From the NCBI GenBank assembly GCA_963705915.1, contig OY970126.1, forward strand, positions 102,753 to 166,752: DNA of 64,000 nt. The letters are read 5' to 3'. The notes under the pieces were generated by a model. It saw only the letters and a list, made by a program, of their open reading frames with translations. It was not told where the DNA came from and made no database searches. The first letter of the stretch is position 1. Each line of letters opens with the position of its first letter. The stretch comes from an uncultured bacterium. Lineage in GTDB: Bacteria > Patescibacteriota > Minisyncoccia > UBA6257 > 2-01-FULL-56-20. Made by a program: the position numbers and the translations under genes. Shown one piece after another: positions 2,947 through 57,214 of the stretch.

Positions 2947-4954
2947 ATGCCACAACTCGAACTTGTTTCAACCAATAAGCCCGCGGGGGACCAGCCGAAA
3001 GCGATCGCATCGCTTGTTTCGGGTTTGGAAAAGGGCATGCGCGACCAGACGCTGCTCGGCGTGACCGGCTCCGGAAAAACATTCACCATCGCGAATGTGA
3101 TCGCAGAGATTCCAGAAGCCGACGCTCGTGATCGCGCACAACAAGACGCTTGCCGCACAGCTCTGCAATGAGTTCCGCGAACTGTTCCCGAAAAACTCCG
3201 TCAACTATTTTGTCTCGTACTACGACTACTATCAGCCGGAGGCGTATATCCCGTCGAGCGATACCTATATCGACAAGGAGGCGCTGATCAACGATGAGAT
3301 CGACAAGCTGCGCCACGCGGCGACGACCGCGCTTCTCACGCGGCGCGATGTGATCATCGTGGCGTCGGTTTCGTGCATCTACGGTTTGGGCGCGCCGGAG
3401 GTGTATCGCGAAGAACATTTTCCATTTTAAAGTGGGCGACAAGATTGAGCGAAAGGAATTCTCGCGCAAACTTGTCGAGCTGCAATTCAGCCGCACGAAC
3501 AGCGGACCTCAAGCGTGGCACGTATCGCCTGCGCGGCGAGAATTGGGAGATCATGCCCGCGGACCGCGAGATCATCTACAACATTGAGGTTCTGAGCGGA
3601 ATCATCCGTCGCGATCTATGAAGTCGATCCGGTGATAGGATTCCAGCCGGGCAAGACGCCGCCGATCCCGGACATCATCTTTGCTCCGGCAAAACATTTC
3701 ATCACGGAAGCGCCGGAGCGCGAGCGGGCGATCGAAGAGATTCAAGAAGAATTGAAGGAACAGCTCGCAAAGTTTGATAAGGAGAAAAAATTTTTGGAAG
3801 CCGAGCGACTTGAACGCCGGACCAAGTTTGATCTCGCCATGATGCGCGAAGTGGGCTACTGCCACGGCATTGAAAACTATTCGCGCCATCTTTCCGGCCG
3901 CGCCGCGGGCGAGCCGCCGGCAACGCTTCTCGATTATTTCCCGCACACGGAAGATCGGCAAGCCGGATTTTCTCACGGTGATCGACGAATCGCACATGAC
4001 CGTGCCGCAGTTGCAGGGCATGTTCAACGGCGACGCGGCGCGCAAGAAGACGCTCGTTGAATATGGTTTTCGGCTGCCGTCAGCAATCGACAACCGGCCG
4101 TTGCGATTTGAGGAATTCGAAGCGCGGATCGGCCAGACGATTTATACATCCGCAACGCCGGGTCCGTACGAGCGCAAGGAGAGTGAGGCGCCGCGAGGGC
4201 AAACGGTCGAGCAGATCATCCGCCCGACCGGTCTCGTCGATCCAAAGATCACGATGCGCGCCGGCGCGTGGCCAGGTGGAAGATCTCATCCCGCGCATCG
4301 AGGAGCGCGTGGCAAAGAACGAGCGCGTGCTTGTGACGACGCTTACCAAGCGGATGGCGGAAGATCTCGCGCTCGTATCTCGAAGAGAAAAAAATAAAAG
4401 TGAACTATCTGCATAGCGATGTGAAGACGCTCGATCGTATCAAGATCCTGACCGAACTCCGCAAGGGGAAGATTGAAGTGCTGGTCGGCGTGAATCTTTT
4501 GCGCGAAGGGCTTGACCTGCCGGAGGTCTCGCTCGTCGCCATTTTGGATGCGGACAAAGAAGGATTTTTGCGGAGCGAAGTTTCGCTTATGCAGACGATC
4601 GGCCGCGCCGCGCGCAACGCGCAGGGCGAAGTGCTGATGTACGCCGATAATATCACGGGCTCCATCGAGCGCGCCGTAAAAGAAACCGACCGCCGCCGCA
4701 AGATCCAGGTTGCCTATAACAAAGAACACGGCATCACGCCCACGACGATCATCAAAAAGATTTCCGATATTTTGCCTAATGTGGACGAGATATTGAAGCT
4801 TGAGACGAAGCCGATTCCCAAGTCAAAGACCGCTCTGCAGAAGCTGATCGCCGAGAAGCAGCGCGAGATGCGCGAAGCGGCGAAAGCGCTCGACTTTGAA
4901 ATGGCTGCCATTTTGCGGGATGAAGTTAAAGAGTTGATGAAGCGACAAAAATAA
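2947..4954 (+). pseudogene. uvrB: uvrB (excinuclease ABC subunit B) disrupted by >=7 frameshifts
   Basis: UvrB-like sequence is recoverable only by hopping between frames: 2947-3110 ([17 protein letters not shown]), 3110-3430 ([15 protein letters not shown]...[10 protein letters not shown]...GLGAPEVY), 3431-3500 (KVGDKIERKEFSRKLVELQFSRTN), 3500-3620 (LKRGTYRLRGENWEIMPADREIIYNIE), 3620-3955 (EVDPVIG...FAPAKHFIT...[26 protein letters not shown]), 3955-4255 ([11 protein letters not shown]...[14 protein letters not shown]...YTSATPG), 4255-4375 ([27 protein letters not shown]), 4375-4954 (KVNYLHSD...[27 protein letters not shown]...UVR domain). Neighbouring long genes (uvrA, secA, dnaE) are intact. 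Confidence 0.85.
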
Positions 4955-7166: not shown

Positions 7167-9725
7167 ATGGTCACAAACATGGCACACGATAAAATCATCA
7201 TCAAAGGTGCGCGGGAACACAATCTCAAGAACATCAACCTTGAGATTCCGCGCGACAAAATGGTTGTTTTCACCGGCCTTTCTGGTTCGGGAAAGTCGTC
7301 GCTCGCATTCGATACGATTTTTGCCGAGGGCCAGCGTCGCTACATTGAGTCATTATCTGCCTATGCGCGGCAGTTTTTGGGCCGTCTCGATAAGCCGGAC
7401 GTGGATGATATTGAGGGGCTATCGCCCGCGATTTCAATCGACCAAAAAAGCCATTCCTCCAATCCGCGTTCGACCGTTGCGACAATCACCGAGATTTATG
7501 ATTATCTCCGCGTGTTATTCGCGCGCGCCGGCAAGCCATTTTGTCCGACCTGCGGCCGCGAAATCAAAAAACTGACGAATGAAGAGATCGTTGACGTTGC
7601 GATTGATTTTGCAAAGCAGAACGACGTGGCGGCGGGAAAAAAGGGAAAGGGCGCCAGCAACAACCTTGTGATTCTCGCACCCGTCGTCCGCGGCAGAAAA
7701 GGGGAGTATTACCAGATGCTCTACGATTTTTTGAATGCAGGATTTTCTGAGGTCCGCGTCGACGGGAAATATCATTCGCTCCGCGAACGGGTTGAGTTGT
7801 CACGCTATAAGATCCACAACATCGACCTCGTCGTCGACCGCATCCCGGCCGGAATGAATTTTAAAGAAAAAGATAATCGCTTGCGCCTTGCAGAGGCTAT
7901 CGAACACGGCCTCAAATACGGTGAGGGCGTCGTTACAGTCATCACCGACAAAGAAGTTTCTTTATCGGCAAAGTTCACCTGCCCCCACGACGGATTCTCA
8001 TTCCCGGAAATTGAACCACGATTATTTTCGTTTAACAGCCCGTACGGCGCTTGTCCCGAGTGCCATGGCTTGGGCACGAAAGATTTATGGTCGGATGAAA
8101 TCTGTCCGGTCTGCGAAGGCAAGCGATTGCGGGTCGAAAGCCTGAACGTTCTCATCGACGGCAAAAATATCAATGGCGTCGTCGCATTTTCCATTGAGAA
8201 GGCATACGCTTTCTTTGACGGTATGAAATTCAAAAACGCCTCGCTCACCGAGGTTGCCGAAGCGCCGCTCCGAGAGATTAAATCCCGATTAAAATTCATG
8301 AGCGATGTCGGCCTGGAATATCTCACCCTCGACCGGAAAGCGGGGACATTGTCGGGCGGCGAAGCCCAGCGAATCCGCCTTGCCTCGCAAATCGGCTCGC
8401 GCCTTGTGGGTACGCTCTATATATTGGACGAGCCGACGATCGGCTTGCATCAGCGTGATAACGCAAAGCTCATTAAAACGCTCCAGGATTTGCGTGACCT
8501 TGGGAATACCATCATCGTCGTCGAACACGACGAAGATACGATCCGCGCCGGCGACTATCTGGTTGATATTGGCCCAGCTGCCGGCGTCCATGGCGGCAAC
8601 GTCGTGGCAAAAGGGCCGATCCCGGAAATATTCAAAGATACCAAGCAAAATTCGCTCACGCTCCAATATTTGCGCGGCAAACAATTCATCGAAATGCCCG
8701 ACACGCGTCGAAAGGTGGACAGCAAGCAAGAATACCTCAAAATCCGAGGAGCTCACGCGAATAATTTGAAGGATGTTGACGTTGATATTCCGTTGCGCCG
8801 CTTTACGGCGGTGACCGGCGTCTCAGGCTCCGGCAAGTCGAGTTTGGTATACGACGTGCTCTACAAAGCCGTTGCTGACAAGTTGAATAGGGCGACGTAC
8901 AAAGCCGGCGGATACAAATCCATCCTTGGTTTGGAATATATCAACCGGATTATCAACATCGATCAATCGGCGATCGGTCGCACGCCGCGATCGAATCCGG
9001 CTACGTATGTCGGCGCGTGGTCCCATATCCGCGATCTTTTTGCCTCAACCGAAGATGCGCGCGTGCGCGGATACAAACCGGGACGGTTCAGCTTCAACGT
9101 CCCCGGCGGCCGCTGCGAAAACTGCGAAGGCCACGGAACGATTGCGATCGAAATGCATTTCTTACCAACCGTGTATGTGACGTGTGACGTTTGCAAGGGC
9201 AAACGGTTCGACCGCGAAACGCTCGAAGTCGAATACAAAGGAAAAAATATTTTTCAGGTTTTACAGATGACCATCGAAGAGGCTGTGAAATTCTTTGATG
9301 ATATTCCGTGGCTTAAAGAAAAATTGAGCATTCTTGAAGAAGTCGGATTGGGATATTTGGAACTCGGCCAATCGGCGACAACCTTGTCCGGCGGCGAGGC
9401 GCAACGGATCAAACTTTCCGCCGAGCTCGGCAAGCGCGATACGCGCCGCACATTATATCTGCTCGACGAGCCGACAACGGGCTTGCATTTTGCGGACGTT
9501 GATCAGTTGATCAAAGTTTTGCAAAGACTCGTCGACCGCGGGAATACGATTGTCGTCATCGAACACAACCTTGACGTGATCAAAACGGCGGACTGGATCA
9601 TTGATCTCGGCCCCGAAGGGGGCGAGCGGGGTGGCACGATTATTGCAACGGGAACGCCGGAGCAGGTGGTGCGAAAAGCGGGGAGCTTCACCGGCCAATA
9701 TCTCCGAAAGGTGCTTGCCAAGTGA
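7167..9725 (+). CDS. uvrA: excinuclease ABC subunit A (UvrA), lacking the insertion domain
   Basis: [10 protein letters not shown], two ABC modules ([14 protein letters not shown] / [14 protein letters not shown]; [12 protein letters not shown] / [12 protein letters not shown]), Zn fingers. Only ~12 aa separate CPECHGLG and CPVCEGKRL, whereas canonical UvrA has an insertion domain of roughly 100 aa here. Confidence 0.9.
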
Positions 9726-10052: not shown

Positions 10053-11300
10053 ATGGTAAAAAACGATTACAAAAAATTACCCGACACGCCGGGCGTATAT
10101 ATGATGAAAAACGCCGAGGGCAAGATTTTATATGTTGGCAAGGCAGGTAACTTGCGCCGACGTGTTTCGAGTTATTTTGAACGGCCGCACGACGTGCGCA
10201 TCGAACGGCTCGTTTCAAAAATCCACACGATCGATTTTGAGCAAACCGACAGCGCCCTTGAAGCGCTTATTCTCGAAGCAGAACTCATCAAGAAACTTGA
10301 GCCACCGTTCAACGTGCGGGAGAAAGACGATAAAAGTTTTCTCTATGTCGAAATCGGCAAAGAGCGATTCCCGAGAGTGTTTTTGGTGCGTGGAAAAGAC
10401 GCGGAAACCGGCAGGCGCTACGGCCCTTTTACATCGGCCTCGAGCGCCCGTGAAGCGCTTCGTATTCTCCGGCGAATTTTTCCATGGAGCACCCATGATC
10501 CCGATACGATTGGAAAGTTCAAACGGCCCTGCTTTGATTACGAAGTCGGATTATGTCCCGGCACGTGCATCGGCGCCGTAACGCGCGAGGAATATATAAA
10601 AAATATCGACCGACTCAAATTATTCCTCGAGGGCAAAAAGAAAAGCGTTATCCGTTCATTCGAAGCCGATATGAAGGCGGCGAGCAAAGCGCTCGCGTTC
10701 GAGAAGGCGGAAAAACTGCGGCGGCAATTGTTTGCCCTCAGGCACATCCGCGACACGGCATTCATTTCCGATTCCGAAATCGTCGCCGGCTCCCATGGCG
10801 ATGGCCGCAGCGAAAAAGTGAATGGCGAGCCCTATCGCATCGAAGGCTATGACATATCGAATATTTCAGGCACCGACGCCGTCGGATCGATGGTGGTATT
10901 TGAGGACGGCAAGCCGAATAAAGATGAATATCGAAAATTTAAGATAAAAAGCATTTTCCAACCGAACGACGTCGGTATGCTCACCGAGGTTCTCACGCGA
11001 AGATTCTATCGACATGCGATCGGCGGCCGAGTAACTGCGGAAGCGTGGCGTCTGCCGGACCTTGTCTTAATTGACGGCGGCATCGCGCAGGCAAATGCCG
11101 CAAAAAAAGTTCTACTGCGCGCCGGCCTCAACGTTCCCATCCTCGGCATTGCGAAGGGCGCGGAACGCAAACGGAACGATATCATCGGCGCAATCCCCAA
11201 GGGTGTCACAAAAGAAACGCTCATCCACGTGCGGAACGAAGCGCACCGTTTTGCCATTGGATACCATAAAGCCCTCCGTAGCAGGAGAGCTTTGCGCTAG
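10053..11300 (+). CDS. uvrC: excinuclease ABC subunit C (UvrC), short form lacking C-terminal (HhH)2 domain
   Basis: GIY-YIG (GVYMMKNAEGKILYVGKAGNLRRRVSSYF), UvrB-interacting region (ALEALILEAELIKKLEPPFN), RNaseH-like endonuclease domain (GYDISNISGTDAVGSMVVFEDGKPNKDEYRKFKIK); ends ~415 aa with no HhH motifs. Confidence 0.8.
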   Translation: MVKNDYKKLPDTPGVYMMKNAEGKILYVGKAGNLRRRVSSYFERPHDVRIERLVSKIHTIDFEQTDSALEALILEAELIKKLEPPFNVREKDDKSFLYVEIGKERFPRVFLVRGKDAETGRRYGPFTSASSAREALRILRRIFPWSTHDPDTIGKFKRPCFDYEVGLCPGTCIGAVTREEYIKNIDRLKLFLEGKKKSVIRSFEADMKAASKALAFEKAEKLRRQLFALRHIRDTAFISDSEIVAGSHGDGRSEKVNGEPYRIEGYDISNISGTDAVGSMVVFEDGKPNKDEYRKFKIKSIFQPNDVGMLTEVLTRRFYRHAIGGRVTAEAWRLPDLVLIDGGIAQANAAKKVLLRAGLNVPILGIAKGAERKRNDIIGAIPKGVTKETLIHVRNEAHRFAIGYHKALRSRRALR

Positions 11301-22487: not shown

Positions 22488-23240
22488 ATGGCTAAATTAC
22501 TTGCGGCGAACTGGAAGGAAAATCCGAATTCGGAGAAAGCAGCGCTCGAACTCTTTCGGGCGGTGAGCCATGGTACTAGCGGCAAGCAACCTGCCATTAT
22601 TGTTTGTCCGCCATTTATCTATCTTGAGAAAATCGCTGATGAGTTTAAGCGATTAAGGGTGAAGAAAAATCTAGCGCTCGGCGCACAGGATGTTTTTTGG
22701 GAAGAACAAGGACCCTTCACGAGCGAAGTGGGGCCAAAAATGTTGAAATCGCTCAGTATGCGCTATGTGATCATTGGCCACTCCGAGCGTCGCCGATGGC
22801 TCCACGAAACCGACGCGATGGTGAATAAAAAAATAAAACTTGCGCTCAAGGATGGTCTTATCGTCATACTGTGTGTCGGCGAGTCGCTCGCGATACGAAG
22901 AAAAGGGGAGAACGTTGCAAAAGATTTTATTAAATCCCAATTAAAAAAAGATTTGGCTGGCGTCCTGCCTGAGAAGATAAAGAAGTCGGTCGTAATAGCT
23001 TACGAGCCCATCTGGGCCATTGGCACCGGGAAATCAGACAAGCCCGTGGACGCTGCACGAATCGCTGATTTCATTAAAAAAATGACGAAGACAAAAGTGC
23101 TCTATGGAGGGTCGGTTAATATCAAGAATATTCGTGATTTTGTACAATTAAGGGAGATTGATGGTGCGCTTGTCGGTGGCGCAAGCCTCAAAGCAAGTGA
23201 GTTCAAAAAAATGATAAAAGTCGTTGCAAAATTACCATAA
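22488..23240 (+). CDS. tpiA: triose-phosphate isomerase
   Basis: AANWKEN, IIGHSERR, CVGESL, YEPIWAIGTGKS motifs. Confidence 0.9.
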   Translation: MAKLLAANWKENPNSEKAALELFRAVSHGTSGKQPAIIVCPPFIYLEKIADEFKRLRVKKNLALGAQDVFWEEQGPFTSEVGPKMLKSLSMRYVIIGHSERRRWLHETDAMVNKKIKLALKDGLIVILCVGESLAIRRKGENVAKDFIKSQLKKDLAGVLPEKIKKSVVIAYEPIWAIGTGKSDKPVDAARIADFIKKMTKTKVLYGGSVNIKNIRDFVQLREIDGALVGGASLKASEFKKMIKVVAKLP

Positions 23241-32817: not shown

Positions 32818-32933
32818 TTGGAAGTCTGCCTTGTGGATAACAGCAACGGCATGCAAAAAACCCAGAAAAATCTGGGTTTTTTGAGCTTCATTTTTTAATA
32901 AAGTTTTAATGTACCGCTTGCTATGATGGAGGC

Positions 32934-33605
32934 ATGCGAGCACTTTTAGTTGAAGACGAACAAAAAATGGCGAGCTTTATCATGACCGGTTTGAAGACCG
33001 AACATTTTGCGAGTGATTGGACGGACAACGCAGAAAAAGCACTTTTTTGGGCAAAGACCAATCCGTACGATGTCGGCGTCATCGATATCAACCTTGGCAA
33101 GGGAGGCAATGGTCTTGATGTCTGCAAAGCGATCCGAGTAAGCGGGAAAAAGTTTCCGATTATCATGCTCTCGGTCATCAACGATACGCCGACGAAAGTT
33201 GAGGCGCTTAATCTTGGCGCCGATGATTATCTCGTAAAACCTTTTGCCATGACCGAGCTCACCGCCCGAATTCGGGCACTCATGCGGCGTGAGAAGAGCA
33301 TTGTTGGGCCGGTGATGAAAATTGCCGATCTCGAAATGGATACGCTTGCCCATAGCGTGAAGCGCGCCGGCAAATCGGTGGCGCTCAATAAAAAAGAATT
33401 CGCACTCCTCGAATATCTTATGCGGAATGAAGGAACGACGCTCACGCGCGGTATGATTCTCGAACACGTCTGGGATATGAACGTCGATCCATTCACAAAT
33501 ACCGTCGATGTCCACATCCGATTTCTACGTGCAAAAGTTGACGAAGGGCATAAAAGAAAATTGGTAAAAACAGTTCACGGCTACGGTTACAAAATCGAGG
33601 GATAG
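32934..33605 (+). CDS. response regulator transcription factor (OmpR family), orphan
   Basis: REC domain (LLVEDE...D...K) plus winged-helix Trans_reg_C (LVKTVHGYGYKI); no histidine kinase adjacent. Confidence 0.85.
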   Translation: MRALLVEDEQKMASFIMTGLKTEHFASDWTDNAEKALFWAKTNPYDVGVIDINLGKGGNGLDVCKAIRVSGKKFPIIMLSVINDTPTKVEALNLGADDYLVKPFAMTELTARIRALMRREKSIVGPVMKIADLEMDTLAHSVKRAGKSVALNKKEFALLEYLMRNEGTTLTRGMILEHVWDMNVDPFTNTVDVHIRFLRAKVDEGHKRKLVKTVHGYGYKIEG

Positions 33606-33621
33606 ATGATATTATGGAGAA

Positions 33622-36075
33622 ATGCGCTCACCAACCGAAAAACATTTTGTCCCAACCATCTTTGTTGTTCTCGGCGCGACCGGGGACTTGATGACAAAAA
33701 AGATTGTTCCTGCACTTTTCCAACTTCACGAAAAAAAGGCGCTGCCGCCCCATTTTAAATTTCTGGGTGTCTCGCGGCGAGATTGGACCGACGAAGATCT
33801 TCGCCGGCACATTGAAGCAATTTTGAGCGTGAAAGCTCCGCATGCTTCGCGTGCATCTATCGAATCATTTTTAAAACTCGCCATCTATCATAAGCTCACA
33901 TTCCAATCTCGCGAGGATTATAGTGGGCTGAAAGACGCATTGCATAAAATCGACGACGAGAAAGGCATGTGTTCAAATAAGCTTCTCTATTTATCGGTGC
34001 CGCCGCAATTCTATGGAGAAATTCTCGATAACATCAAACGGGCCGGGCTGCACGAAGAATGCATGCCCCACAGCGAGGGCGAAGGATGGACGCGGGTCGT
34101 TATTGAAAAGCCTTTTGGCAATAATGAAAAAAGCGCCAAGGCGCTCGACGAAAAAATCGCAAAGATTTTTAATGAAGACCAAATTTATCGCGTAGACCAT
34201 TATCTCGCAAAGGAAACGTTCCAAAATATTCTTGCGTTCCGGTTCTACAACGATCTTTTTGAGAATGGCTGGGGGAAGAAATTGATTGAGGCCGTCTATC
34301 TGCGAGGTCTAGAAAATATCGGGGTGGAGGATCGCGGACCTTTTTATGATCCGCTCGGTGCTCTCCGCGATGTTGGACAAAATCACATGCTTCAGATGGC
34401 TGCCCTCATTGCGATGGAACAGCCTGAGAATCTGGACGCCGAAGCGATCCGCGCCAAACGTGCAGAGATTTTAAAAAAACTGAAACCGCTTTCGACCGAT
34501 GAGGTGGCCGCACAGACGTTTCGTGCCCAATACGAAGGCTATGGATCAATCAAAGGCGTGGCACCGAATTCTCAGACGGAAACCTATTTCCGCGTGCGAT
34601 TTGGGTTTGACGATCCAAATTGGGAAGGCGTGACATTTGTAATGGAAGCCGGAAAACGACTGATTGATCCCCGCGAACATCGCGAAGTCACGGAAATCGA
34701 AGTCGTATTCCGCCATCCGCAGCCATGTCTCTGCCCGCCGGGAAACCATTATCGTGATCGCGTTGTTTTTCAGCAGGATCCTCAGGAAGGCATTTTCATC
34801 CATTTCTTTGCCAAAAAGCCGGGATTCACTATGCAAATTGAAGAACGGACATTTGAGTTCGATCTCCGCCGCCATAACACGGGCGGCCGAAGTAGTGAGC
34901 GTGAAGAAAATAAAGCCCAGTACACGCAAGAGTATGAAAAACTTCTCCTCGATTGCATGCAAGGCGACCAGACATTATTCATTTCAAGCGAAGAAGTTGC
35001 CGCAATGTGGCGTTTTATCGATCCCATTGAAACAGGATGGCAAAAAGGACTCGTGCCTCTGCGGCGCTATGTTCCGGATGGCCCTGCCGTTACCGTTGAA
35101 GCGGCCGTCATCGATGAGCCGCACGCAAACGCCAAGCTTCCAAGAGAAATCGGGATATTTGGCCTCGGTAAGATGGGTGCGAATGTGGCGCGTGAGCTTC
35201 GGGACAAGGGTTGGCGAGTAGTCGTTTCGAACCGGTCGCCAGGATCGATCGATGAAATGAAAACCGAAGGCTTCGAAACGGCATATTCCTCAAAAGAACT
35301 TGTCGGCCGCCTTAAGGCGCCGCGGATCATTTGGCTCATGATCACGGCAGGCAAGGGCGTCGATGAATTTCTCTTTGGCCGCGATGGGAAGGGTGGCCTT
35401 GTGAGCCAACTTCGCAAAGGCGACATCGTGATTGATGCCGGCAATTCTTTTTATGAGGATACCGTGCGTCGCGCGAAAATCCTTGCACGCAAAAATATCC
35501 ACTTCATGGACGTTGGTTTTTCGGGTGGCCCTTCCGGCGCGCGCCACGGCGGATCGCTTATGATCGGCGGTGAACGTAAATTATTTGAAAATCTCGAGCC
35601 GTTATTCAGGGACCTTTCGGTGCCTGGCGGTTATTCCTATTTCGGTACTGCGGGCGCAGGCCATTTTGTGAAGATGGTCCATAACGGCATTGAATATGGC
35701 ATGATGCAATCGATCGCCGAGGGTTTCGCGCTCATGAAGAAATCGCCCTTCAAACTTGATCTCCAAAAAATCGCGAACGTGTATAACCGCGGCAGCGTCA
35801 TTGAGTCGCGCCTCATCGGTTGGCTCGAGGACGCATACAAGATATACGGCAAAGATCTTGTCGGAGTCTCGGGCTCGGTTGCCTACACCGGAGAAGGCGA
35901 GTGGACGGTAACAACGGGCAAAAAAATGAAGATGAAACTTCCCGCAATCGAAGATGCGTTCCGTTTCCGCGTTCGCTCAAAGCAGTCGCCGACCTATATG
36001 GGTAAAATTCTTTCCGCGTTGCGCAACCGATTTGGCGGGCATTCCATCGAAGGTCAGAAGAATCAGAAAAAGTAG
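33622..36075 (+). CDS. zwf-gnd: fusion protein: glucose-6-phosphate 1-dehydrogenase (N) + 6-phosphogluconate dehydrogenase, decarboxylating-like (C)
   Basis: N ~500 aa: VLGATGDLMTKK, RVDHYLAKETFQNILAFRF, G6PD C-domain. C ~300 aa: Rossmann IGIFGLGKMGANVAREL, GFSGGPSGARHGGSLMIGGE, AGHFVKMVHNGIEYGMMQSIAEGFALM. Single uninterrupted 817-aa ORF. Confidence 0.8.
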   Translation: MRSPTEKHFVPTIFVVLGATGDLMTKKIVPALFQLHEKKALPPHFKFLGVSRRDWTDEDLRRHIEAILSVKAPHASRASIESFLKLAIYHKLTFQSREDYSGLKDALHKIDDEKGMCSNKLLYLSVPPQFYGEILDNIKRAGLHEECMPHSEGEGWTRVVIEKPFGNNEKSAKALDEKIAKIFNEDQIYRVDHYLAKETFQNILAFRFYNDLFENGWGKKLIEAVYLRGLENIGVEDRGPFYDPLGALRDVGQNHMLQMAALIAMEQPENLDAEAIRAKRAEILKKLKPLSTDEVAAQTFRAQYEGYGSIKGVAPNSQTETYFRVRFGFDDPNWEGVTFVMEAGKRLIDPREHREVTEIEVVFRHPQPCLCPPGNHYRDRVVFQQDPQEGIFIHFFAKKPGFTMQIEERTFEFDLRRHNTGGRSSEREENKAQYTQEYEKLLLDCMQGDQTLFISSEEVAAMWRFIDPIETGWQKGLVPLRRYVPDGPAVTVEAAVIDEPHANAKLPREIGIFGLGKMGANVARELRDKGWRVVVSNRSPGSIDEMKTEGFETAYSSKELVGRLKAPRIIWLMITAGKGVDEFLFGRDGKGGLVSQLRKGDIVIDAGNSFYEDTVRRAKILARKNIHFMDVGFSGGPSGARHGGSLMIGGERKLFENLEPLFRDLSVPGGYSYFGTAGAGHFVKMVHNGIEYGMMQSIAEGFALMKKSPFKLDLQKIANVYNRGSVIESRLIGWLEDAYKIYGKDLVGVSGSVAYTGEGEWTVTTGKKMKMKLPAIEDAFRFRVRSKQSPTYMGKILSALRNRFGGHSIEGQKNQKK

Positions 36076-36126: not shown

Positions 36127-37098
36127 ATGCTTCCGGACGACATTAAAAATTACGCAAAACAGTTCGATTACGAGCCGATCGTCGAGAACTCAAAGAAGCT
36201 GAAGAAATTCAGCAAATTTGTGGTTGCTGGCATGGGCGGATCACACCTCGCCGCCGATATTATTAAGTCCTGGCATCCGGAACTCGATCTCGTTATCTGG
36301 CACAATTATGGTCTGCCGAAACTTCATGAAAAAGATATTAAAGACCGCTTGATTATTTTGAGTTCATATTCTGGGAACACTGAGGAGACGATCGATGCCT
36401 TAAACACCGCGAAGGCCAAGCACTTGAATGTTGCCGTTGTCGCTGCGCGAGGAAAGTTGATTAAGCTCGCGCAAAGCTTGAAGGTGCCCTATGTGCAAAT
36501 GCCGGATTTTCATATGCAGCCACGCATGGCGACCGGCCTCAGCCTAAAGGCACTTCTTGCGCTTATGGGTGAGCGGGTATGGCTTTCAGAAGCCAAGATG
36601 CTTGGCACATTGCTTCATCCATCACGGGAAGAACTTCGGGGCCGCGACCTGGCGAAGCGCCTCCACGGCACGGTTCCGATAATCTATGCATCGGTGCGCA
36701 ATATGGCAATCGCCCAGAATTGGAAAATAAAAATGAACGAAACCGGCAAAGTTCCGGCGTTCTGGAATGTCGTTCCCGAGATGAATCACAATGAAATGAC
36801 GGGATTCGATGCCAAAGACAAGACAACATCTCTTTCGCGCCATTTTCATTTTGTATTTTTGAAAGACGCCGATGACGATCGCCGCATTATTAGACGGATG
36901 AATGTGATGGAGAAATTATTCCGCGACAGGGGATTTAAGACAGAAATCGTTTTGCTCCAAGGCAAAAATGCGTTGCACAAAATTTTTAACGGTCTGATCC
37001 TTGCCGACTGGACAGCATTCCATAGTGCCAAACTTTACACCGTCGATCCCGAACAGGTGCCGATGGTTGAGGAGTTTAAGAAGCTGATTGGGAGATAG
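36127..37098 (+). CDS. bifunctional phosphoglucose/phosphomannose isomerase (SIS domain, archaeal-type PGI/PMI)
   Basis: SIS motif FVVAGMGGSHLAADIIK; ~320 aa family size; follows pentose-phosphate fusion gene. Confidence 0.65.
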   Translation: MLPDDIKNYAKQFDYEPIVENSKKLKKFSKFVVAGMGGSHLAADIIKSWHPELDLVIWHNYGLPKLHEKDIKDRLIILSSYSGNTEETIDALNTAKAKHLNVAVVAARGKLIKLAQSLKVPYVQMPDFHMQPRMATGLSLKALLALMGERVWLSEAKMLGTLLHPSREELRGRDLAKRLHGTVPIIYASVRNMAIAQNWKIKMNETGKVPAFWNVVPEMNHNEMTGFDAKDKTTSLSRHFHFVFLKDADDDRRIIRRMNVMEKLFRDRGFKTEIVLLQGKNALHKIFNGLILADWTAFHSAKLYTVDPEQVPMVEEFKKLIGR

Positions 37099-37134: not shown

Positions 37135-37821
37135 ATGTCCACAAAACTTTCGCGTTCCAAGCTCGAACTTTTCATTGATTGCCCGCAATGTTTTTGGCTC
37201 GATATGAAACAGGGGGTGAAACGCCCGTCCGGGCCGCCGTTCACGCTCAATAATGCGGTGGACTATTTACTCAAAGAGGAATTCGACGTTCATCGTGAAA
37301 AAAAGACGCGGCATCCGGTGATGGAAAAATATGAGATTGATGCGTTGCCGTTCCAGCATGAAAAATTAAACACGTGGCGCCATAACTTTACAGGCGTCCA
37401 GTTTGAACACAAACCGACCGGATTTCTCGTCTACGGCGCCGTCGATGATCTTTGGGTAAATCCAGACGGCGAAATCAGCGTCGTGGATTATAAGGCGACG
37501 GGGGCAAAAGAACACAAAATTTATGATTCGTATCGCAGGCAGATGGAAATTTATCAGTGGCTTCTTCGCCAGAACGGATTTGATGTTTCGCCGATCGGCT
37601 ATTTCGTTTTCGCTCGCGTGAACAAAGGCGATGGATTCGGCAATGGCAATGCGGCGCTTGCGTTCGATATGTTCATTGAGCCGCTCCACGGTGATGATTC
37701 TTGGATTGAGAAGGCATTGAGTTCGGCTAAAAAAACATTTGACATGACGACGGCGCCGGAAGCGACGCCGACCTGTGATTATTGTTCTTACCGGAAAGCT
37801 GCAGCCCGGGTTGGTTCCTGA
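37135..37821 (+). CDS. PD-(D/E)xK nuclease superfamily protein, Cas4/RecB-like with 4-Cys cluster
   Basis: N-terminal C..C (CPQCFW), core GAVDDLWVNPDGEISVVDYKAT (D...D-x-K), QxxxY (MEIYQWL), C-terminal C..C (CDYCSY). Confidence 0.55.
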   Translation: MSTKLSRSKLELFIDCPQCFWLDMKQGVKRPSGPPFTLNNAVDYLLKEEFDVHREKKTRHPVMEKYEIDALPFQHEKLNTWRHNFTGVQFEHKPTGFLVYGAVDDLWVNPDGEISVVDYKATGAKEHKIYDSYRRQMEIYQWLLRQNGFDVSPIGYFVFARVNKGDGFGNGNAALAFDMFIEPLHGDDSWIEKALSSAKKTFDMTTAPEATPTCDYCSYRKAAARVGS

Positions 37822-45295: not shown

Positions 45296-45763
45296 ATGAG
45301 AAAAATTTGGGTAGTCGTCATTGCGGTCGTGTGCGCGGGCGTATTCTTCTATGTTGGGATGGTGTACGGAAAAAATACCGCATCGTCTTCATCTGCTGGC
45401 CGAGGCGGCAGTTTCGCGTTCTCTTCGTCCACACGGGCCGGATTCGGCGCGCGCGGGGGGACAGGAACCGGAGGGACGGGAGGCGTCGTGACAGGCCAAG
45501 TTATTTCAACGAACGCCGACAGTATGACCGTGCAACTCGCGAATGGCAATTCACAGGTGGTGTTTTTCTCGAGTTCAACGGACATAGAAAAACCGTCACC
45601 GGTTCCAGCGAGCGAGCTTACTGACGGGACAGAGGTGATTGTGACAGGCTCATCGAATTCAGATGGGAGTGTCACGGCGCAGATGATCCAGGTTCGGCCG
45701 GCGGGTATGGGCGGATTCTTTGGAGGTGGTGGATCTGGGAGCGCATCATCATCAAGCCAGTAG
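45296..45763 (+). CDS. DUF5666-like secreted protein, Gly-rich
   Basis: Signal/TM, Gly-rich linker, MTVQLANGNSQVVFFSSSTDIEK...GTEVIVTGSSNSDGSVTAQMIQVRP parallels 40888 ORF. Confidence 0.45.
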   Translation: MRKIWVVVIAVVCAGVFFYVGMVYGKNTASSSSAGRGGSFAFSSSTRAGFGARGGTGTGGTGGVVTGQVISTNADSMTVQLANGNSQVVFFSSSTDIEKPSPVPASELTDGTEVIVTGSSNSDGSVTAQMIQVRPAGMGGFFGGGGSGSASSSSQ

Positions 45764-47204
45764 CGAAATAAAAATTCCTGCATATGCAGGAATTTTTATC
45801 TGCCGTTTCAGATACGATTACGGGCGAAAACATCATGATTCCTGTGGTTTATGCACACTTCGCGAAAGGATATCAAAAAAAGGCTATATAATTAAACCAA
45901 AGGCGAGTTCCTGCCATTTTTTCGGTGTTCGGACACTCACCATGCCGACCCAAAAAGCGATTAAAAAAAAATCTACGAGAGAGAAGGGGCGAGCATCTGC
46001 ATCGCGTCGTACTTTGCGTAGTCCGCTCCGTAGCAGGGCTAAAACTTCCCAAAAACCCGTTCGACGAAAAATCCCTGCGCGACTCACAAAAACAGCTCGC
46101 CGCACGATGCTTCTCCAGGCCATTCGAGAGGCGCGTGCCAAACGAGCGTTGCGTGAGAAAGGCGAAGAGCGTCCGATCCATCCGCATGAGCTGCGCCGGC
46201 ACGAAGAGAATCCGATCATCGAGCCGCGAAAACATAATTTTTGGGAGATGAAAGCAACGTTCAATCCTGGCGCGATCTACGCCGATAAACGGGTGCATCT
46301 TTTGTATCGTGCAATCGGTGGGGATGATATTTCGGTCCTGGGTTATGCATCCAGCGAGGATGGCGTAACGATCAGCGAGCGACTCAACGAGCCCGCATAC
46401 ATACCAAGCCATATCATAAAAAAGACGGAGGCGATGCGTGCCAGTGCTCCGCCGGTGGCGTATCTTTCGGGTGGTGGATGGAATGGTGGTTGCGAAGACC
46501 CACGGCTCACTATGATTGATGACCGTGTCTATCTGACTTACACGGCGTTCGATGGCTGGGGTTCGGTTCGCATTGCACTATCCTCGATCGGTGTCGAGGA
46601 TTTTTTGCGAAAGGCATGGCGTTGGAAAAATCCGGCGCTCATTTCACCGCCGGGCGAAATCCATAAAAATTGGATGCTTTTCCCGGAAAAAATTCACGGC
46701 AAATTTGCTTTGCTTCATAGCATCTCGCCGCACATTCTGGTCGATTATTTCGATTCCCTTCACGAGCTTGAAGAGTCTCGGCGCACCATCCGGAGTGTTC
46801 GCGAGATGGTTCCAAATCTGGGGCGATGGGATAGCTTTGTGCGCGGAGCCGGACCGCCGCCAATGAAGACGAGGCTCGGATGGTTGCTTTTTTATCACGC
46901 CATCGACGCTCGCGACCCCGGTCGCTATAAGGTGGGCGCTATGGTGCTCGATAGCGATGATCCGACCAAAATTCTATATCGTTCACAGAGCCCGGTGCTT
47001 GAACCCGAAATGGAATATGAAAACAACGGCATCGCCTCTGGTATTGTTTATTCCTGTGGGGCCGTTGTGAAAGATGGTACACTGTATCTTTATTATGGAG
47101 GAAGCGACAGTGTATCGTGTGTAGCGACGGCGAACCTCGACCAGTTCCTGGAAGATCTCAAAAAATACGGAACACCAAAACTTGTACTTCATGCCAACCG
47201 TTAA
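45720..47204 (+). CDS. GH130-like (DUF377/Glyco_hydro_130 beta-propeller) protein with highly basic N-terminal extension
   Basis: ENPIIEPRKHNFWEMKATFNPGAIYADKRVHLLYRAIGGDDISVLGYASSEDGVTI...GCEDPRLTMIDDRVYLTYTAFDG; N-terminal ~100 aa Lys/Arg-rich (KKKSTREKGRASASRRTLRSPLRSRAKTSQKPVRRKIPARLTKTARR); likely true start near 45942. Confidence 0.5.
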   Translation: MEVVDLGAHHHQASSEIKIPAYAGIFICRFRYDYGRKHHDSCGLCTLRERISKKGYIIKPKASSCHFFGVRTLTMPTQKAIKKKSTREKGRASASRRTLRSPLRSRAKTSQKPVRRKIPARLTKTARRTMLLQAIREARAKRALREKGEERPIHPHELRRHEENPIIEPRKHNFWEMKATFNPGAIYADKRVHLLYRAIGGDDISVLGYASSEDGVTISERLNEPAYIPSHIIKKTEAMRASAPPVAYLSGGGWNGGCEDPRLTMIDDRVYLTYTAFDGWGSVRIALSSIGVEDFLRKAWRWKNPALISPPGEIHKNWMLFPEKIHGKFALLHSISPHILVDYFDSLHELEESRRTIRSVREMVPNLGRWDSFVRGAGPPPMKTRLGWLLFYHAIDARDPGRYKVGAMVLDSDDPTKILYRSQSPVLEPEMEYENNGIASGIVYSCGAVVKDGTLYLYYGGSDSVSCVATANLDQFLEDLKKYGTPKLVLHANR

Positions 47205-55655: not shown

Positions 55656-55765
55656 CCCGGTTTTCCTTATATACTAAATTACCCGACCCCTCTTGGTCTA
55701 TGGTGCCAAAACTAGACTGCTGGGGGAAATGGATTCGAATCCAAGGAATCGGTTACAATTAAGGT

Positions 55766-57214
55766 ATGCTCGAAGACATTCTCGCTGACCGCCGCAAGAA
55801 GCTCGATACCCTCAAAAAGGCTGGCATCGATCCGTATCCTGCCCATGTAAAGCGCAGCTTTTCGGTTGGGCACGCGCTCGACCATTTTGATGAGCTCGAA
55901 AAGAGCCGCGAAGGCATCTCGCTTGTCGGTCGCGTGCGGAGCTTGCGCGACCAGGGGAAGATTATGTTTGCCGACCTTGAAGACGGCAAGGGAAAGATTC
56001 AGGTGGTCTTTAGGGGAGAGGACATCAAAGATTTGGATTTCTGGCGCAAGGTGATCGACCTCGGCGATTTCATTTCGGTCACGGGCCCGCTCTTCATCAC
56101 AAAGCGTGGCGAGCGGAGCATCGAAGTCCATCACATCCAGATGGCTTCGAAGGCGCTCTATCCGTTGCCCGACAAGTGGGAGGGACTTGAGGATATCGAA
56201 GCGCGACTTCGCGAGCGGTATCTCGACCTCATTGCGCATCCAGAAATCAAAGATCTTTTCATTAAGAAAGCTATTTTCTGGACGAGCGTCCGGGAGTTTT
56301 TGGAAACCGAAGGATTTTTGGAAGTCGAAACGAGCGTACTCGAATCGATGGCCGGCGGCGCCGAGGCAGAGCCATTCGTCACGCATCACAACGCGCTCGA
56401 TACGGAATTCTATCTTCGTATCTCGCTTGAGCTGCAGCTCAAGAAACTCGTCACGGGCGGCTTTGAAAAAATATTCGAGATCGGACGCGTATTCCGCAAT
56501 GAAGGTATCGATCGCGAGCACCTCCAGGATTTCACCTTCATGGAATGCTATTGGGCCTACCACGATTACCGCGACATGATGGAACTCATGCAGAGGATGT
56601 ATAAGTTCGTCATCGAAAAAACGATGGGTAGTTTGCGGACGGCTTCGCTCGGTTTCCATATAGACTGGGAAAAACCCTGGCCCGAAATCGATTACGTAAA
56701 GATTTTCAAAAAAGAGAACGGCTTTGATCCGCTCGAAGCGACGCATGAGCAGTTGTTCAAGCGGGCAAAGGATCTCGGCCTCGCGCCCGAAAAGGGATTG
56801 CAGAAAGGACGCCTCATCGACCTTGTGTATAAAAAGACGGTGCGGCCGAAGCTCATCGAGCCATGTTTCCTGGTTGGCCATCCGCTCATCGTCTCGCCGC
56901 TTTCAAAAGCGTCGCGTGAAAATCCGGAGATCGCCGAACGGTTCCAGATTGTGGCATGCGGGAGCGAACTGGGCAACGGCTATTCCGAGCTCAATGATCC
57001 GCAAGACCAGCGACAGCGGTTTGAAGCCCAGATGGATTTGAGGAAGAAAGGGGACAACGAAGCGATGCAGCTCGATGAAGATTTTTTGAAAGCGCTCGAA
57101 TACGGCATGCCGCCGACCGCCGGTTTTGGCATGTCGGAACGGGTATTCGCCATTCTCATGGATAAACCCGTGCGCGAGACGGTGTTCTTCCCGCTCATGC
57201 GACCCAAGAAATAA
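55766..57214 (+). CDS. lysS: lysine--tRNA ligase (class II)
   Basis: N-terminal OB anticodon domain, class II motifs (FMECYWAYHDYRDMMEL; GMPPTAGFGMSERVFAIL). Confidence 0.95.
   Translation: MLEDILADRRKKLDTLKKAGIDPYPAHVKRSFSVGHALDHFDELEKSREGISLVGRVRSLRDQGKIMFADLEDGKGKIQVVFRGEDIKDLDFWRKVIDLGDFISVTGPLFITKRGERSIEVHHIQMASKALYPLPDKWEGLEDIEARLRERYLDLIAHPEIKDLFIKKAIFWTSVREFLETEGFLEVETSVLESMAGGAEAEPFVTHHNALDTEFYLRISLELQLKKLVTGGFEKIFEIGRVFRNEGIDREHLQDFTFMECYWAYHDYRDMMELMQRMYKFVIEKTMGSLRTASLGFHIDWEKPWPEIDYVKIFKKENGFDPLEATHEQLFKRAKDLGLAPEKGLQKGRLIDLVYKKTVRPKLIEPCFLVGHPLIVSPLSKASRENPEIAERFQIVACGSELGNGYSELNDPQDQRQRFEAQMDLRKKGDNEAMQLDEDFLKALEYGMPPTAGFGMSERVFAILMDKPVRETVFFPLMRPKK

Follow-up and report, generated by a model that had tools for sequence, protein, structure and literature searches.

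The gene at positions 33622..36075 of the + strand encodes, in one reading frame, a complete glucose-6-phosphate dehydrogenase (Zwf, residues 15-483) followed by a complete short-chain 6-phosphogluconate dehydrogenase (Gnd, residues 509-810). The gene lies in a 64-kb stretch of DNA, all of which was analysed and which is called the window here. Judged from its sequence, the 817-aa product is very likely a true two-function enzyme that serves the oxidative pentose phosphate pathway, in which Zwf would catalyze step 1 and Gnd step 3. The ORF has no internal stop codons, and an identical protein (P0001) is present in NCBI/ENA on an 827-kb contig. The Pfam domains occur in the order G6PD_N, G6PD_C, NAD_binding_2 and 6PGD, and the Pfam and NCBIfam matches agree with the initial annotation, which described one continuous polypeptide made of Zwf and a short-form Gnd. 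The motifs that it quoted are all in place: GATGDL (18-23), RVDHYLAKE (190-198), IGIFGLGKMGANVAREL (510-526), GFSGGPSGARHGGSLMIGGE (632-651) and HFVKMVHNGIEYGMM (681-695). The parts of the gene are as follows.

33622..36075, +, zwf-gnd fusion gene: single 817-aa ORF, ATG start, end coordinate including the stop codon
33664..34227, +, G6PD N-terminal NADP-binding Rossmann domain: residues 15-202, Pfam PF00479 G6PD_N, E 6.6e-56
34231..35070, +, G6PD C-terminal beta+alpha domain: residues 204-483, Pfam PF02781 G6PD_C, E 3.5e-71
35110..35142, +, Ala-rich linker between the enzymes, variable in sequence and length: about residues 497-507
35146..35619, +, 6PGDH NAD(P)-binding domain: residues 509-666, Pfam PF03446 NAD_binding_2, E 3.8e-40
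35230..35238, +, Asn537-Arg538-Ser539, the beta2-alpha2 turn governing NADP+ specificity: from the alignment
35659..35988, +, 6PGDH all-helical domain, single copy: residues 680-789, Pfam PF00393 6PGD, E 1e-17

The two enzyme modules

Conservation was assessed in the best 120 database matches, taken at the level of 90%-identity clusters from NCBI, JGI, ENA and Logan assemblies. These proteins are 56-100% identical to the fusion, have 781-844 aa and all contain the same four domains. Across all 120, the Zwf motifs GxTGDL, RR, EKPFG, DHYLxKE and GQNH and the Gnd motifs GLGKMG, NR, SGG, HFVKMVHNGIEYG and GEGEWT are invariant or nearly so.

The Zwf half scores 420.4 bits against the NCBIfam model TIGR00871 (zwf), which has an equivalog cutoff of 400.6. 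In addition to GATGDL, its N-terminal domain has R52-R53 and EKPFG (162-166), and the catalytic His255 sits in GQNH (252-255), which is invariant. The RVDHYLAKE block, located just upstream of the G6PD_C domain, corresponds to the RIDHYLGKE nonapeptide that contains the substrate Lys; the Gly at position 196 is replaced by Ala in 102 of the 120 fusions, and the D, H, Y, K and E residues are invariant. These motif blocks align with the same blocks in PDB entries 9emm and 8fuy, the first of which matches the Zwf half at 2e-78. A Foldseek search with the AF2 model found the L. mesenteroides and human G6PDs at TM scores of 0.86-0.87 (target-normalised), with 0.87 for the L. mesenteroides enzyme.

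The Gnd half is of the short form, as the match to the Pfam 6PGD domain covers only profile positions 1-116 of 290. It matches two models end to end (residues 509-810), TIGR00872 gnd_rel (320.0 bits, cutoff 297.2) and NF007161 (328.2 bits, cutoff 271), and it is far under the cutoffs of the long-form models TIGR00873 and NF006765. The NAD(P)-binding domain contains GLGKMG (514-519) and SGG (634-636), both invariant, and the catalytic block HFVKMVHNGIEYG (681-693) provides Lys684, His687, Asn688 and Glu691. These four residues, together with S634-G635-G636 and H681, are invariant in all 120 fusions. In the PDB, the fused Gnd is nearest to the short-chain 6PGDHs 8ihe, 6vpb and 4e21, and their catalytic block (KMVHNGIEY type) aligns with that of the fusion.

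The turn after strand beta2 bears on the cofactor. Asn537-Arg538 occurs in every one of the 120 fusions and aligns with the NR(L/T) of the long-chain NADP+ enzymes 2w8z/4gwg; the same position is Asp in the short-chain NAD+-type enzymes 8ihe/4e21. In this beta2-alpha2 triplet, Asn-Arg-Thr is the NADP+ signature (PMC8900737). The name of the TIGR00872 family states NAD+ dependence, which goes with an Asp after beta2, and the Gnd half does not have this Asp. We predict from the motif that the Gnd half prefers NADP+; if so, the "NAD(+)-dependent" label that some sources attach to these proteins is probably wrong.

The AF2 model of the fusion has a mean pLDDT of 89.3 with both halves confident, and disorder is restricted to the linker (pLDDT < 50 at residues 501-504). 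The pTM of 0.66 suggests that no fixed pose of the two halves relative to each other is predicted. The C-terminal LSALRNRFGGH tail of Gnd is conserved, and it is free because the fusion joins at the Gnd N-terminus. G6PDs are dimers or tetramers. For short-chain 6PGDHs, tetramerisation with a swap of the C-terminal helix is reported to be required (PMC8900737). The two oligomer types that would thus be combined in one chain were counted against the bifunctional reading. From the known assemblies, one would expect a core formed by a Gnd tetramer, with Zwf dimers attached to it.

Distribution and gene neighbourhood

The initial annotation proposed that relatives be searched for the same fusion, and it occurs in at least 120 of the 90%-identity clusters and in about a dozen of the 50%-identity ones. 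The latter, about 12 further fused representatives that are 38-51% identical to the present protein, emerged when the 50%-identity clusters were searched exhaustively; Woesebacteria, Microgenomates, Minisyncoccia and Patescibacteria are among their source names, and Paceibacterota is also among the homolog names. A Woesebacteria protein, QQR63809.1, is encoded on a 929-kb contig of a closed genome. The fusion is very likely an inherited and selected feature of Patescibacteria/CPR (Paceibacteria/Minisyncoccia, Woesebacteria and others). The gene was previously called unusual, which is correct in comparison with textbook bacteria; however, it is not so in Paceibacteria and their relatives, where the fusion is the common state.

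Other arrangements also exist. For example, in a related CPR genome (a Moraniibacteriota locus, L002), zwf ends in a stop codon and gnd follows after a gap of 12 nt, with gene order and frame as in the fusion; this is plausibly an unfused state. Among the matches listed in a scan of genome contigs, which are mostly distant standalone zwf loci, the fusion is present only in L001 (full) and L003 (partial). Matches to residues ~11-810 in other phyla were considered as further fusions and rejected; these loci consist of separate ORFs, mostly with a short gnd upstream of zwf. A re-rooted NJ tree of the Gnd halves, which has no support values, suggests one CPR clade with a few standalone sequences nested in it. 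The equivalent tree of the Zwf halves, also re-rooted and with no support values, suggests that 35 standalone Zwf sequences are interleaved with the fused ones.

The immediate surroundings of the gene contain three features of interest.

32854..32883, +, strong terminator-like hairpin, 13-bp stem followed by a T run: from the terminator scan
32934..33605, +, OmpR-type response regulator: Pfam Response_reg and Trans_reg_C, 16 nt upstream of the fusion
36127..37098, +, bifunctional phosphoglucose/phosphomannose isomerase (PGI/PMI), SIS type: Pfam bact-PGI_C 4.4e-38, 51 nt downstream of the fusion

The downstream gene agrees with the earlier statement that a PGI/PMI gene follows the fusion; the NCBIfam PGI/PMI families are its top match, yet it is under their cutoffs. 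This adjacency is kept in relatives at 76% and 57% identity and absent in one at 65%. The response regulator is probably the first gene of the transcription unit of the fusion, and the same gene also precedes the fusion in another locus (L081). The hairpin would mark the upstream boundary of this putative operon, and no comparable + strand terminator was found between 32934 and 37821. The promoter/terminator scan as a whole gave no enrichment over shuffles, and this 13-bp hairpin is the only element from it that was taken seriously. GH130 mannoside phosphorylases are also located near the fusion gene.

Alternative explanations and the likely benefit of the fusion

One could ask if zwf and gnd were joined artificially, i.e., by a stop codon lost or an indel introduced in assembly or sequencing. 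The Moraniibacteriota locus shows how little this would take, as there a single substitution could merge the two genes, and uvrB in the same window has several apparent frameshifts. However, at least 120 distinct 90%-identity clusters from independent projects have the same uninterrupted fusion, and divergent lineages in the 50%-identity clusters are also fused. The junction itself gives the same answer. The earlier estimate of its location (~35130, residue ~503) falls within the variable linker, which has low sequence conservation and spans 12-33 residues between the flanking conserved positions in the 120 homologs. The linker region has neither a stop codon nor an in-frame start from which an intact separate Gnd could be translated, and it contains no remnant of a gnd N-terminus. 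Residues 508-510 (K/R-E-I), directly before the Rossmann strand, are conserved as part of a single chain. The conservation of the fusion across independent assemblies rules out an artefact, the probability of which we consider negligible. The local assembly quality is imperfect, uvrB (2947-4954) being riddled with apparent frameshifts, which may reflect either a pseudogene or indel errors; the junction is not affected because the fusion is conserved independently. It is also very improbable that one half has been repurposed, with the Gnd-like half acting as a beta-hydroxyacid dehydrogenase on another substrate or the Zwf half being regulatory or inactive. Short-chain 6PGDHs are members of the beta-hydroxyacid dehydrogenase superfamily, and the Gnd half has weaker matches to tartronate semialdehyde reductase and HIBADH models. 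However, these other families reach at most 80 bits, far under cutoff, compared with 320-328 bits, above the cutoffs, for the 6PGDH models. Furthermore, all of the 6PGDH and G6PD catalytic residues are invariant family-wide, which would not be expected of a degenerate or regulatory domain.

The initial annotation suggested that the fusion channels NADPH production, and this part of it was not supported. The idea is mechanistically awkward, as the lactone made by Zwf has to be hydrolysed before Gnd can act and the protein has no lactonase domain (no match to the Glucosamine_iso/6PGL domain PF01182). As steps 1 and 3 are not consecutive, channelling of a direct product is not possible in the fusion; strict channelling is unlikely because the lactone is not the Gnd substrate. 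A more elaborate version would have the intermediate pass directly between the sites, possibly dispensing with 6-phosphogluconolactonase if hydrolysis took place near the Gnd site or at the domain interface. In its favor, the linker is short, CPR genomes are small and often without accessory enzymes, and no lactonase gene was found beside the fusion in three relatives. In the window, Pfam searches of the substantial ORFs gave no match to lactonase families, even at E<=1 for unannotated ORFs, which bears out the earlier observation that no lactonase is nearby. However, the protein has no additional domain or conserved insert able to serve as a hydrolase, and the AF2 model has a disordered linker and no confident arrangement of the domains (pTM 0.66). 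A lactonase may well exist elsewhere in the genome, as the view here is of 64 kb only. In addition, 6-phosphoglucono-delta-lactone hydrolyses spontaneously (PMC3148214, introduction), and for this reason no special mechanism is required in a pathway that lacks a lactonase. Taken together, a channelling machine of this type is unlikely, and the likeliest reading is that the fusion keeps the two NADPH-producing steps co-localised and obligatorily co-expressed at 1:1.

Under this co-expression reading, the protein would consist of two independently folding catalytic modules with a short flexible linker, about 10-30 residues long, between them. The NADP+-dependent Zwf module would oxidise glucose-6-phosphate (G6P) to 6-phosphoglucono-delta-lactone, which would be hydrolysed either spontaneously or by a lactonase encoded elsewhere. 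The tethered Gnd module would then convert 6-phosphogluconate to ribulose-5-phosphate by oxidative decarboxylation, for an overall yield of 2 NADPH per G6P. The adjacent PGI/PMI probably supplies G6P from fructose-6-P or mannose-6-P. The gain from the fusion would most likely come from fixed co-expression and proximity in a very small genome rather than from tunnelling of an intermediate.

CPR/Patescibacteria have tiny genomes and a patchy central metabolism; many of them retain both of the NADPH-producing dehydrogenases of the oxidative pentose phosphate pathway, and do so in a single gene. Automated annotation labels only one half of these proteins, either as "glucose-6-phosphate dehydrogenase" or as "phosphogluconate dehydrogenase (NAD(+)-dependent)". 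Consequently, pathway reconstructions can miss step 1 or step 3, probably with the wrong cofactor as well. A more ambitious proposal, which we regard as unlikely, is that the fusion defines a lactonase-independent module with the whole oxidative branch on one polypeptide in minimal-genome symbionts. If true, the lactone would be hydrolysed locally, spontaneously or with the help of the protein, and then captured; the fusion, PGI/PMI and GH130 would together turn scavenged hexoses into pentoses and NADPH by a compact route; and the NADP+-type short-chain 6PGDH would represent a subclass new to biochemistry. A natural single-chain enzyme that makes 2 NADPH per G6P could also serve cofactor-regeneration biocatalysis.

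Comparison with known systems

The initial annotation gave the G6PD-6PGL protein of Plasmodium as the known fusion, which is one such case, although the statement omits other prior art. The G6PD::6PGL proteins (Plasmodium GluPho, Giardia, Trichomonas and metazoan H6PD) also join G6PD to a partner from the oxidative pentose phosphate pathway, and coupling of NADPH-producing steps is the rationale given for them. However, their partner is the lactonase, so that steps 1 and 2 are consecutive and a real hand-over of product is possible, whereas the CPR partner catalyzes step 3. A G6PD-6PGD fusion, one of the cases omitted, was described in Phaeodactylum tricornutum by Stover et al. 2011 (PMC3148214). 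It likewise has enzymes 1 and 3 in one reading frame and skips the lactonase, but it is eukaryotic, is confined to one species and its close relatives, and has a disputed gene model. Short-chain 6PGDHs are reported in a review to be confined to prokaryotes (PMC8900737), and so, the 6PGD partner in the diatom is presumably long-chain. The diatom and CPR fusions are likely of independent origin.

The stand-alone short-chain 6PGDHs (8ihe Gnd2, 6vpb from G. diazotrophicus, 4e21 from Geobacter and 6xeq from G. oxydans) have the same ~300-aa architecture as the fused Gnd and share with it the unduplicated helical domain, the catalytic block and the C-terminal RxxFGGH tail. They differ in several respects. 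An Asp follows beta2 in 8ihe, 6vpb and 4e21, the three of these four structures whose alignments were compared, and 6vpb has an NAD+-preferring Asp-Arg-Asp motif, whereas the fused Gnd has Asn-Arg-Ser. Ahead of the catalytic helix, these enzymes contain ~10-20 inserted residues that are absent from the fused Gnd, and only the latter is tethered to Zwf at its N-terminus. Separate zwf and short gnd genes are neighbours in Chloroflexota, Dormibacterota, Binatia, Chlorobiales, Nitrolancea and other loci. Outside the CPR, these pairs are mostly in the reversed order, with gnd upstream of zwf; therefore, the mere loss of a stop codon could not turn pairs of this order into the fusion.

Literature searches found no biochemical characterisation of any member of the Zwf-Gnd fusions. 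A fused G6pd-Pgd form in CPR/DPANN has already been recorded in one sentence of an automated fusion/fission screen (PMC11237513), without domain anatomy, cofactor, linker, neighbourhood or biochemistry. It has the same two enzymes in one ORF and recurs in candidate-phyla genomes, and the present gene almost certainly belongs to this set. In conclusion, with the fusion already on record and two textbook enzymes as its modules, the conceptual advance is modest; the Zwf-Gnd protein is an ordinary possession of its clade and not a new type of system.

The fused gene and its conservation

The zwf-gnd gene is one ORF that opens with ATG and runs for 817 codons with no internal stops, and Pfam recognizes four domains in its product.

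33622..36075, + strand: zwf-gnd fusion gene
residues 15-202: G6PD_N
residues 204-483: G6PD_C
residues 509-666: NAD_binding_2
residues 680-789: 6PGD (profile positions 1-116 of 290 only, as expected of a short-chain 6PGDH)

Both halves score above NCBIfam equivalog/subfamily cutoffs (TIGR00871, zwf, 420.4 versus 400.6; TIGR00872, gnd_rel, 320.0 versus 297.2; NF007161, 328.2 versus 271), and the long-chain gnd models score far under theirs. These results confirm the initial annotation, which described a single ORF joining Zwf to a short Gnd, and all of the motifs that it quoted are found where it placed them. GC3 differs modestly between the Zwf half (0.49) and the Gnd half (0.59).

The homolog set consisted of the 120 clusters at 90% identity listed by a word-indexed protein search. 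All 120 have the same domain order (781-844 aa, 56-100% identity); they come from NCBI, JGI, ENA and Logan assemblies, and the named members are Candidatus Paceibacterota, Minisyncoccia or Patescibacteria. An identical protein is already deposited in NCBI/ENA. When representatives of clusters at 50% identity were scanned exhaustively with HMMER, about 12 more full-length fusions came up at 38-51% identity; the hits below them are Zwf (~450-520 aa) or short Gnd (~300 aa) proteins that stand alone. According to cluster look-ups, some of these divergent fusions are named Woesebacteria/Microgenomates (for example, QQR63809.1, on a 929-kb contig) and others Minisyncoccia or Patescibacteria.

The merging of two genes by a sequencing error is excluded, because the same fusion, which the initial annotation had proposed looking for in relatives, recurs in 120 of 120 listed clusters and in the dozen or so divergent representatives, that is, across independent assemblies and divergent lineages. 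The conserved fusion is real and is a typical feature of CPR lineages, Paceibacteria among them.

The uvrB gene in the window (2947-4954, + strand) is in at least five pieces in differing reading frames, which include the following.

2947-3171, + strand: piece with the GSGKT Walker A motif
3128-3430, + strand: uvrB piece
3870-4397, + strand: piece with the 'VIDESH...' stretch
4400-4954, + strand: piece with the Helicase_C/UvrB/UVR domains

The uvrA (7167-9725) and uvrC (10053-11300) genes are intact. The broken uvrB is either a decaying pseudogene or the product of local assembly indel errors, and its frameshifts leave the exclusion of an artefact in the fusion standing.

Modules, junction and cofactor

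Several motifs are invariant or nearly so in the 120 fusions. In the Zwf half they are G18-x-T-G-D-L, R52-R53, E162-K-P-F-G, D192-H-Y-L-(A/G)-K-E and G252-Q-N-H255, and in the Gnd half G514-L-G-K-M-G, N537-R538, S634-G-G, H681-F-V-K-M-V-H-N-G-I-E-Y-G, G757-E-G-E-W-T and the C-terminal tail L-S-A-L-R-N-(R/Q)-F-G-G-H. The linker, Ala-rich, weakly conserved and 12 to 33 residues long in this set, lies between E493-A494 (last conserved Zwf helix) and K508-E509-I510, directly ahead of the first Gnd Rossmann strand. An AlphaFold2 model built on the 120-sequence alignment has a mean pLDDT of 89.3; residues 501-504 are the sole low-confidence stretch at the junction, and the internal loops 150-152 and 420-424 are also low. 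The model points to two well-folded modules whose mutual orientation is without a confident prediction (pTM 0.66). Foldseek matched the N module to the L. mesenteroides, human and trypanosomatid G6PDs (TM ~0.87 per target) and found no PDB chain spanning both modules. The only in-frame ATG, GTG or TTG codons near the junction are at V478, within the Zwf domain, and at M518/V522, within the GxGxxG motif, so the Gnd half cannot arise as an intact separate protein and the fusion is, judged by its start codons, obligatory.

The solved structures nearest to the C half are the short-chain 6PGDHs 8ihe, 6vpb, 4e21 and 6xeq. In the displayed alignments, 8ihe, 6vpb and 4e21 have an Asp after strand beta2, whereas the fusion has an Asn, and Asn-Arg-(Ser/His/Asn/Thr) is present at this place in the fusion and all 120 relatives. 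Aligned directly, N537-R538-S539 corresponds to N-R-L of the G. stearothermophilus 6PGDH and N-R-T of the human enzyme. A structural review of 6PGDH states that Asn32-Arg33-Thr34 bind the 2'-phosphate and set NADP+ specificity, an Asp at the Asn position excludes this phosphate, and the G. diazotrophicus enzyme (6vpb), which has Asp-Arg-Asp, prefers NAD+ (PMC8900737). Because Asn-Arg aligns with the NADP+ triplet, we infer that the Gnd half prefers NADP+.

In the Zwf half, beta2 is followed by the conserved pair R52-R53, and an Arg at that position of G6PDs is linked with NADP+ use. The fusion is probably a bifunctional NADP+-dependent enzyme.

Homologs of ~800 aa are labelled by one half, as 'glucose-6-phosphate dehydrogenase', '6-phosphogluconate dehydrogenase' or, in some sources, 'phosphogluconate dehydrogenase (NAD(+)-dependent, decarboxylating)'. 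With such names, automated pathway calls may overlook one step. The cofactor label contradicts the invariant Asn-Arg and, if the Gnd half prefers NADP+, would be a carry-over from the family name.

Gene neighbourhood

The features of the window considered here are as follows.

32854-32883: terminator with a 13-bp stem, ahead of the response regulator
32934..33605: OmpR-type response regulator, 16 nt upstream of the fusion
36127..37098: SIS-type bifunctional PGI/PMI, 51 nt downstream of the fusion
37135..37821: PD-(D/E)XK nuclease-family gene, next after PGI/PMI
22488..23240: triosephosphate isomerase
45720-47204 and 47182-49119, + strand: tandem GH130 (beta-mannoside phosphorylase family) genes

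Co-transcription of the four genes from the response regulator to the nuclease-family gene is plausible but unproven, since a terminator precedes them and none comparable was found among them. Among three relatives, the one at 76% identity (L081) has exactly the order response regulator, fusion, PGI; in the one at 57% the fusion, PGI and two GH130 genes follow one another directly, and in the one at 65% the fusion has no PGI neighbour. Together, GH130 and PGI/PMI hint that mannosides could be turned, by way of Man-6-P/Fru-6-P, into G6P for the oxidative pentose phosphate branch. The initial annotation was right that a PGI/PMI gene follows and, as far as the window's ORFs go, that no lactonase (PF01182, PF10282, PF08450) is evident; nor did these ORFs show a transketolase, transaldolase, Rpi or Rpe.

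On the contig of the P0115 homolog (JGI 3300056388), a class I ribonucleotide reductase (NrdA/NrdB-like) lies divergently just upstream of the fusion and is a possible consumer of NADPH-derived reducing power. Elsewhere in the window, a 340-aa SIR2_2-domain protein (54633-55655, - strand) adjoins a 389-aa ORF (55712-56881, - strand) that has no family matches and is probably spurious, because it overlaps a class II aminoacyl-tRNA synthetase gene on the opposite strand (55766-57214, + strand). A 328-aa ORF (1051-2037, + strand) has no Pfam match, and its HExxH-type motif, 'IDHEVAHAND', suggests an unclassified zinc metallopeptidase-like protein.

Function, origin and known fusions

Both modules look catalytically competent, and for that reason the fusion would most likely turn G6P into ribulose-5-P, yielding 2 NADPH. 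Lactone hydrolysis (step 2) falls between the fused activities and the protein has no hydrolase domain, so module 2 cannot use what module 1 makes as its substrate; hydrolysis of the delta-lactone does occur spontaneously (PMC3148214, introduction). The direct channelling put forward in the initial annotation finds no support in the anatomy, with its disordered linker and a pTM of 0.66, and is a minority hypothesis. The best-supported purpose is stoichiometric co-expression and co-localisation, which the fusion would enforce, in a minimal genome, on the two dehydrogenases that generate NADPH. Short-chain 6PGDHs are reported to be tetramers that swap C-terminal helices (PMC8900737), and the free Gnd C-terminus would be compatible with such an assembly.

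A Candidatus Moraniibacteriota MAG (L002, JALVQA010000001.1, 7965-10328) has separate genes for Zwf (480 aa) and a short Gnd (302 aa) in the order and frame of the fusion, with a stop codon and 12 nt between them, and this pair is plausibly an unfused counterpart. After beta2, the Gnd of this pair reads Phe-Asp-Pro-Asp, which is NAD+-like, rather than Asn-Arg; a standalone Patescibacteria gnd (L004) has the NR motif. Outside CPR, among the loci listed, many phyla have a short gnd directly upstream of zwf as separate ORFs, the order opposite to that of the fusion. These ~300-aa gnd genes (L006, L010, L022, L053, L070, L078 and others) carry the labels Chloroflexota, Dormibacterota, Binatia, Chlorobiales, Nitrolancea and delta-proteobacterium. 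NJ trees, which have no support values, group the Gnd halves of every fusion in one clade against those phyla, a few standalone sequences being nested in it; in the Zwf tree, 35 standalone Zwf are interleaved with fused ones. One early fusion with later fissions and several independent fusions are both possible.

A full fused homolog (L001, CAYIQM010000003.1, 1-2430; 809 aa, 47% identity) is in a MAG labelled 'uncultured Gammaproteobacteria bacterium', which may reflect a binning/taxonomy error or transfer outside CPR. Another fusion with this Gnd family (P0235, 735 aa) has a classical phosphoglucose isomerase at residues 64-430 (PF00342) and a short-chain 6PGDH at residues 442-713, and P0228 has a weak 6PGL-like N-terminus before G6PD.

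The Zwf-Gnd fusion, two textbook modules, is already on record, noted computationally, and a literature search of incomplete coverage yielded neither biochemical nor structural work on it. To this record the analysis adds that a short-chain Gnd carries an NADP+-type motif and that the fusion is obligatory, together with the linker anatomy, the recurrent PGI/PMI (and GH130) neighbourhood and one caveat: channelling between steps 1 and 3 would require the hydrolysis that lies between them. The initial annotation named the Plasmodium G6PD-6PGL protein as the known fusion, which is incomplete, as Stover et al. (2011) reported a G6PD-6PGD fusion in Phaeodactylum tricornutum (PMC3148214).
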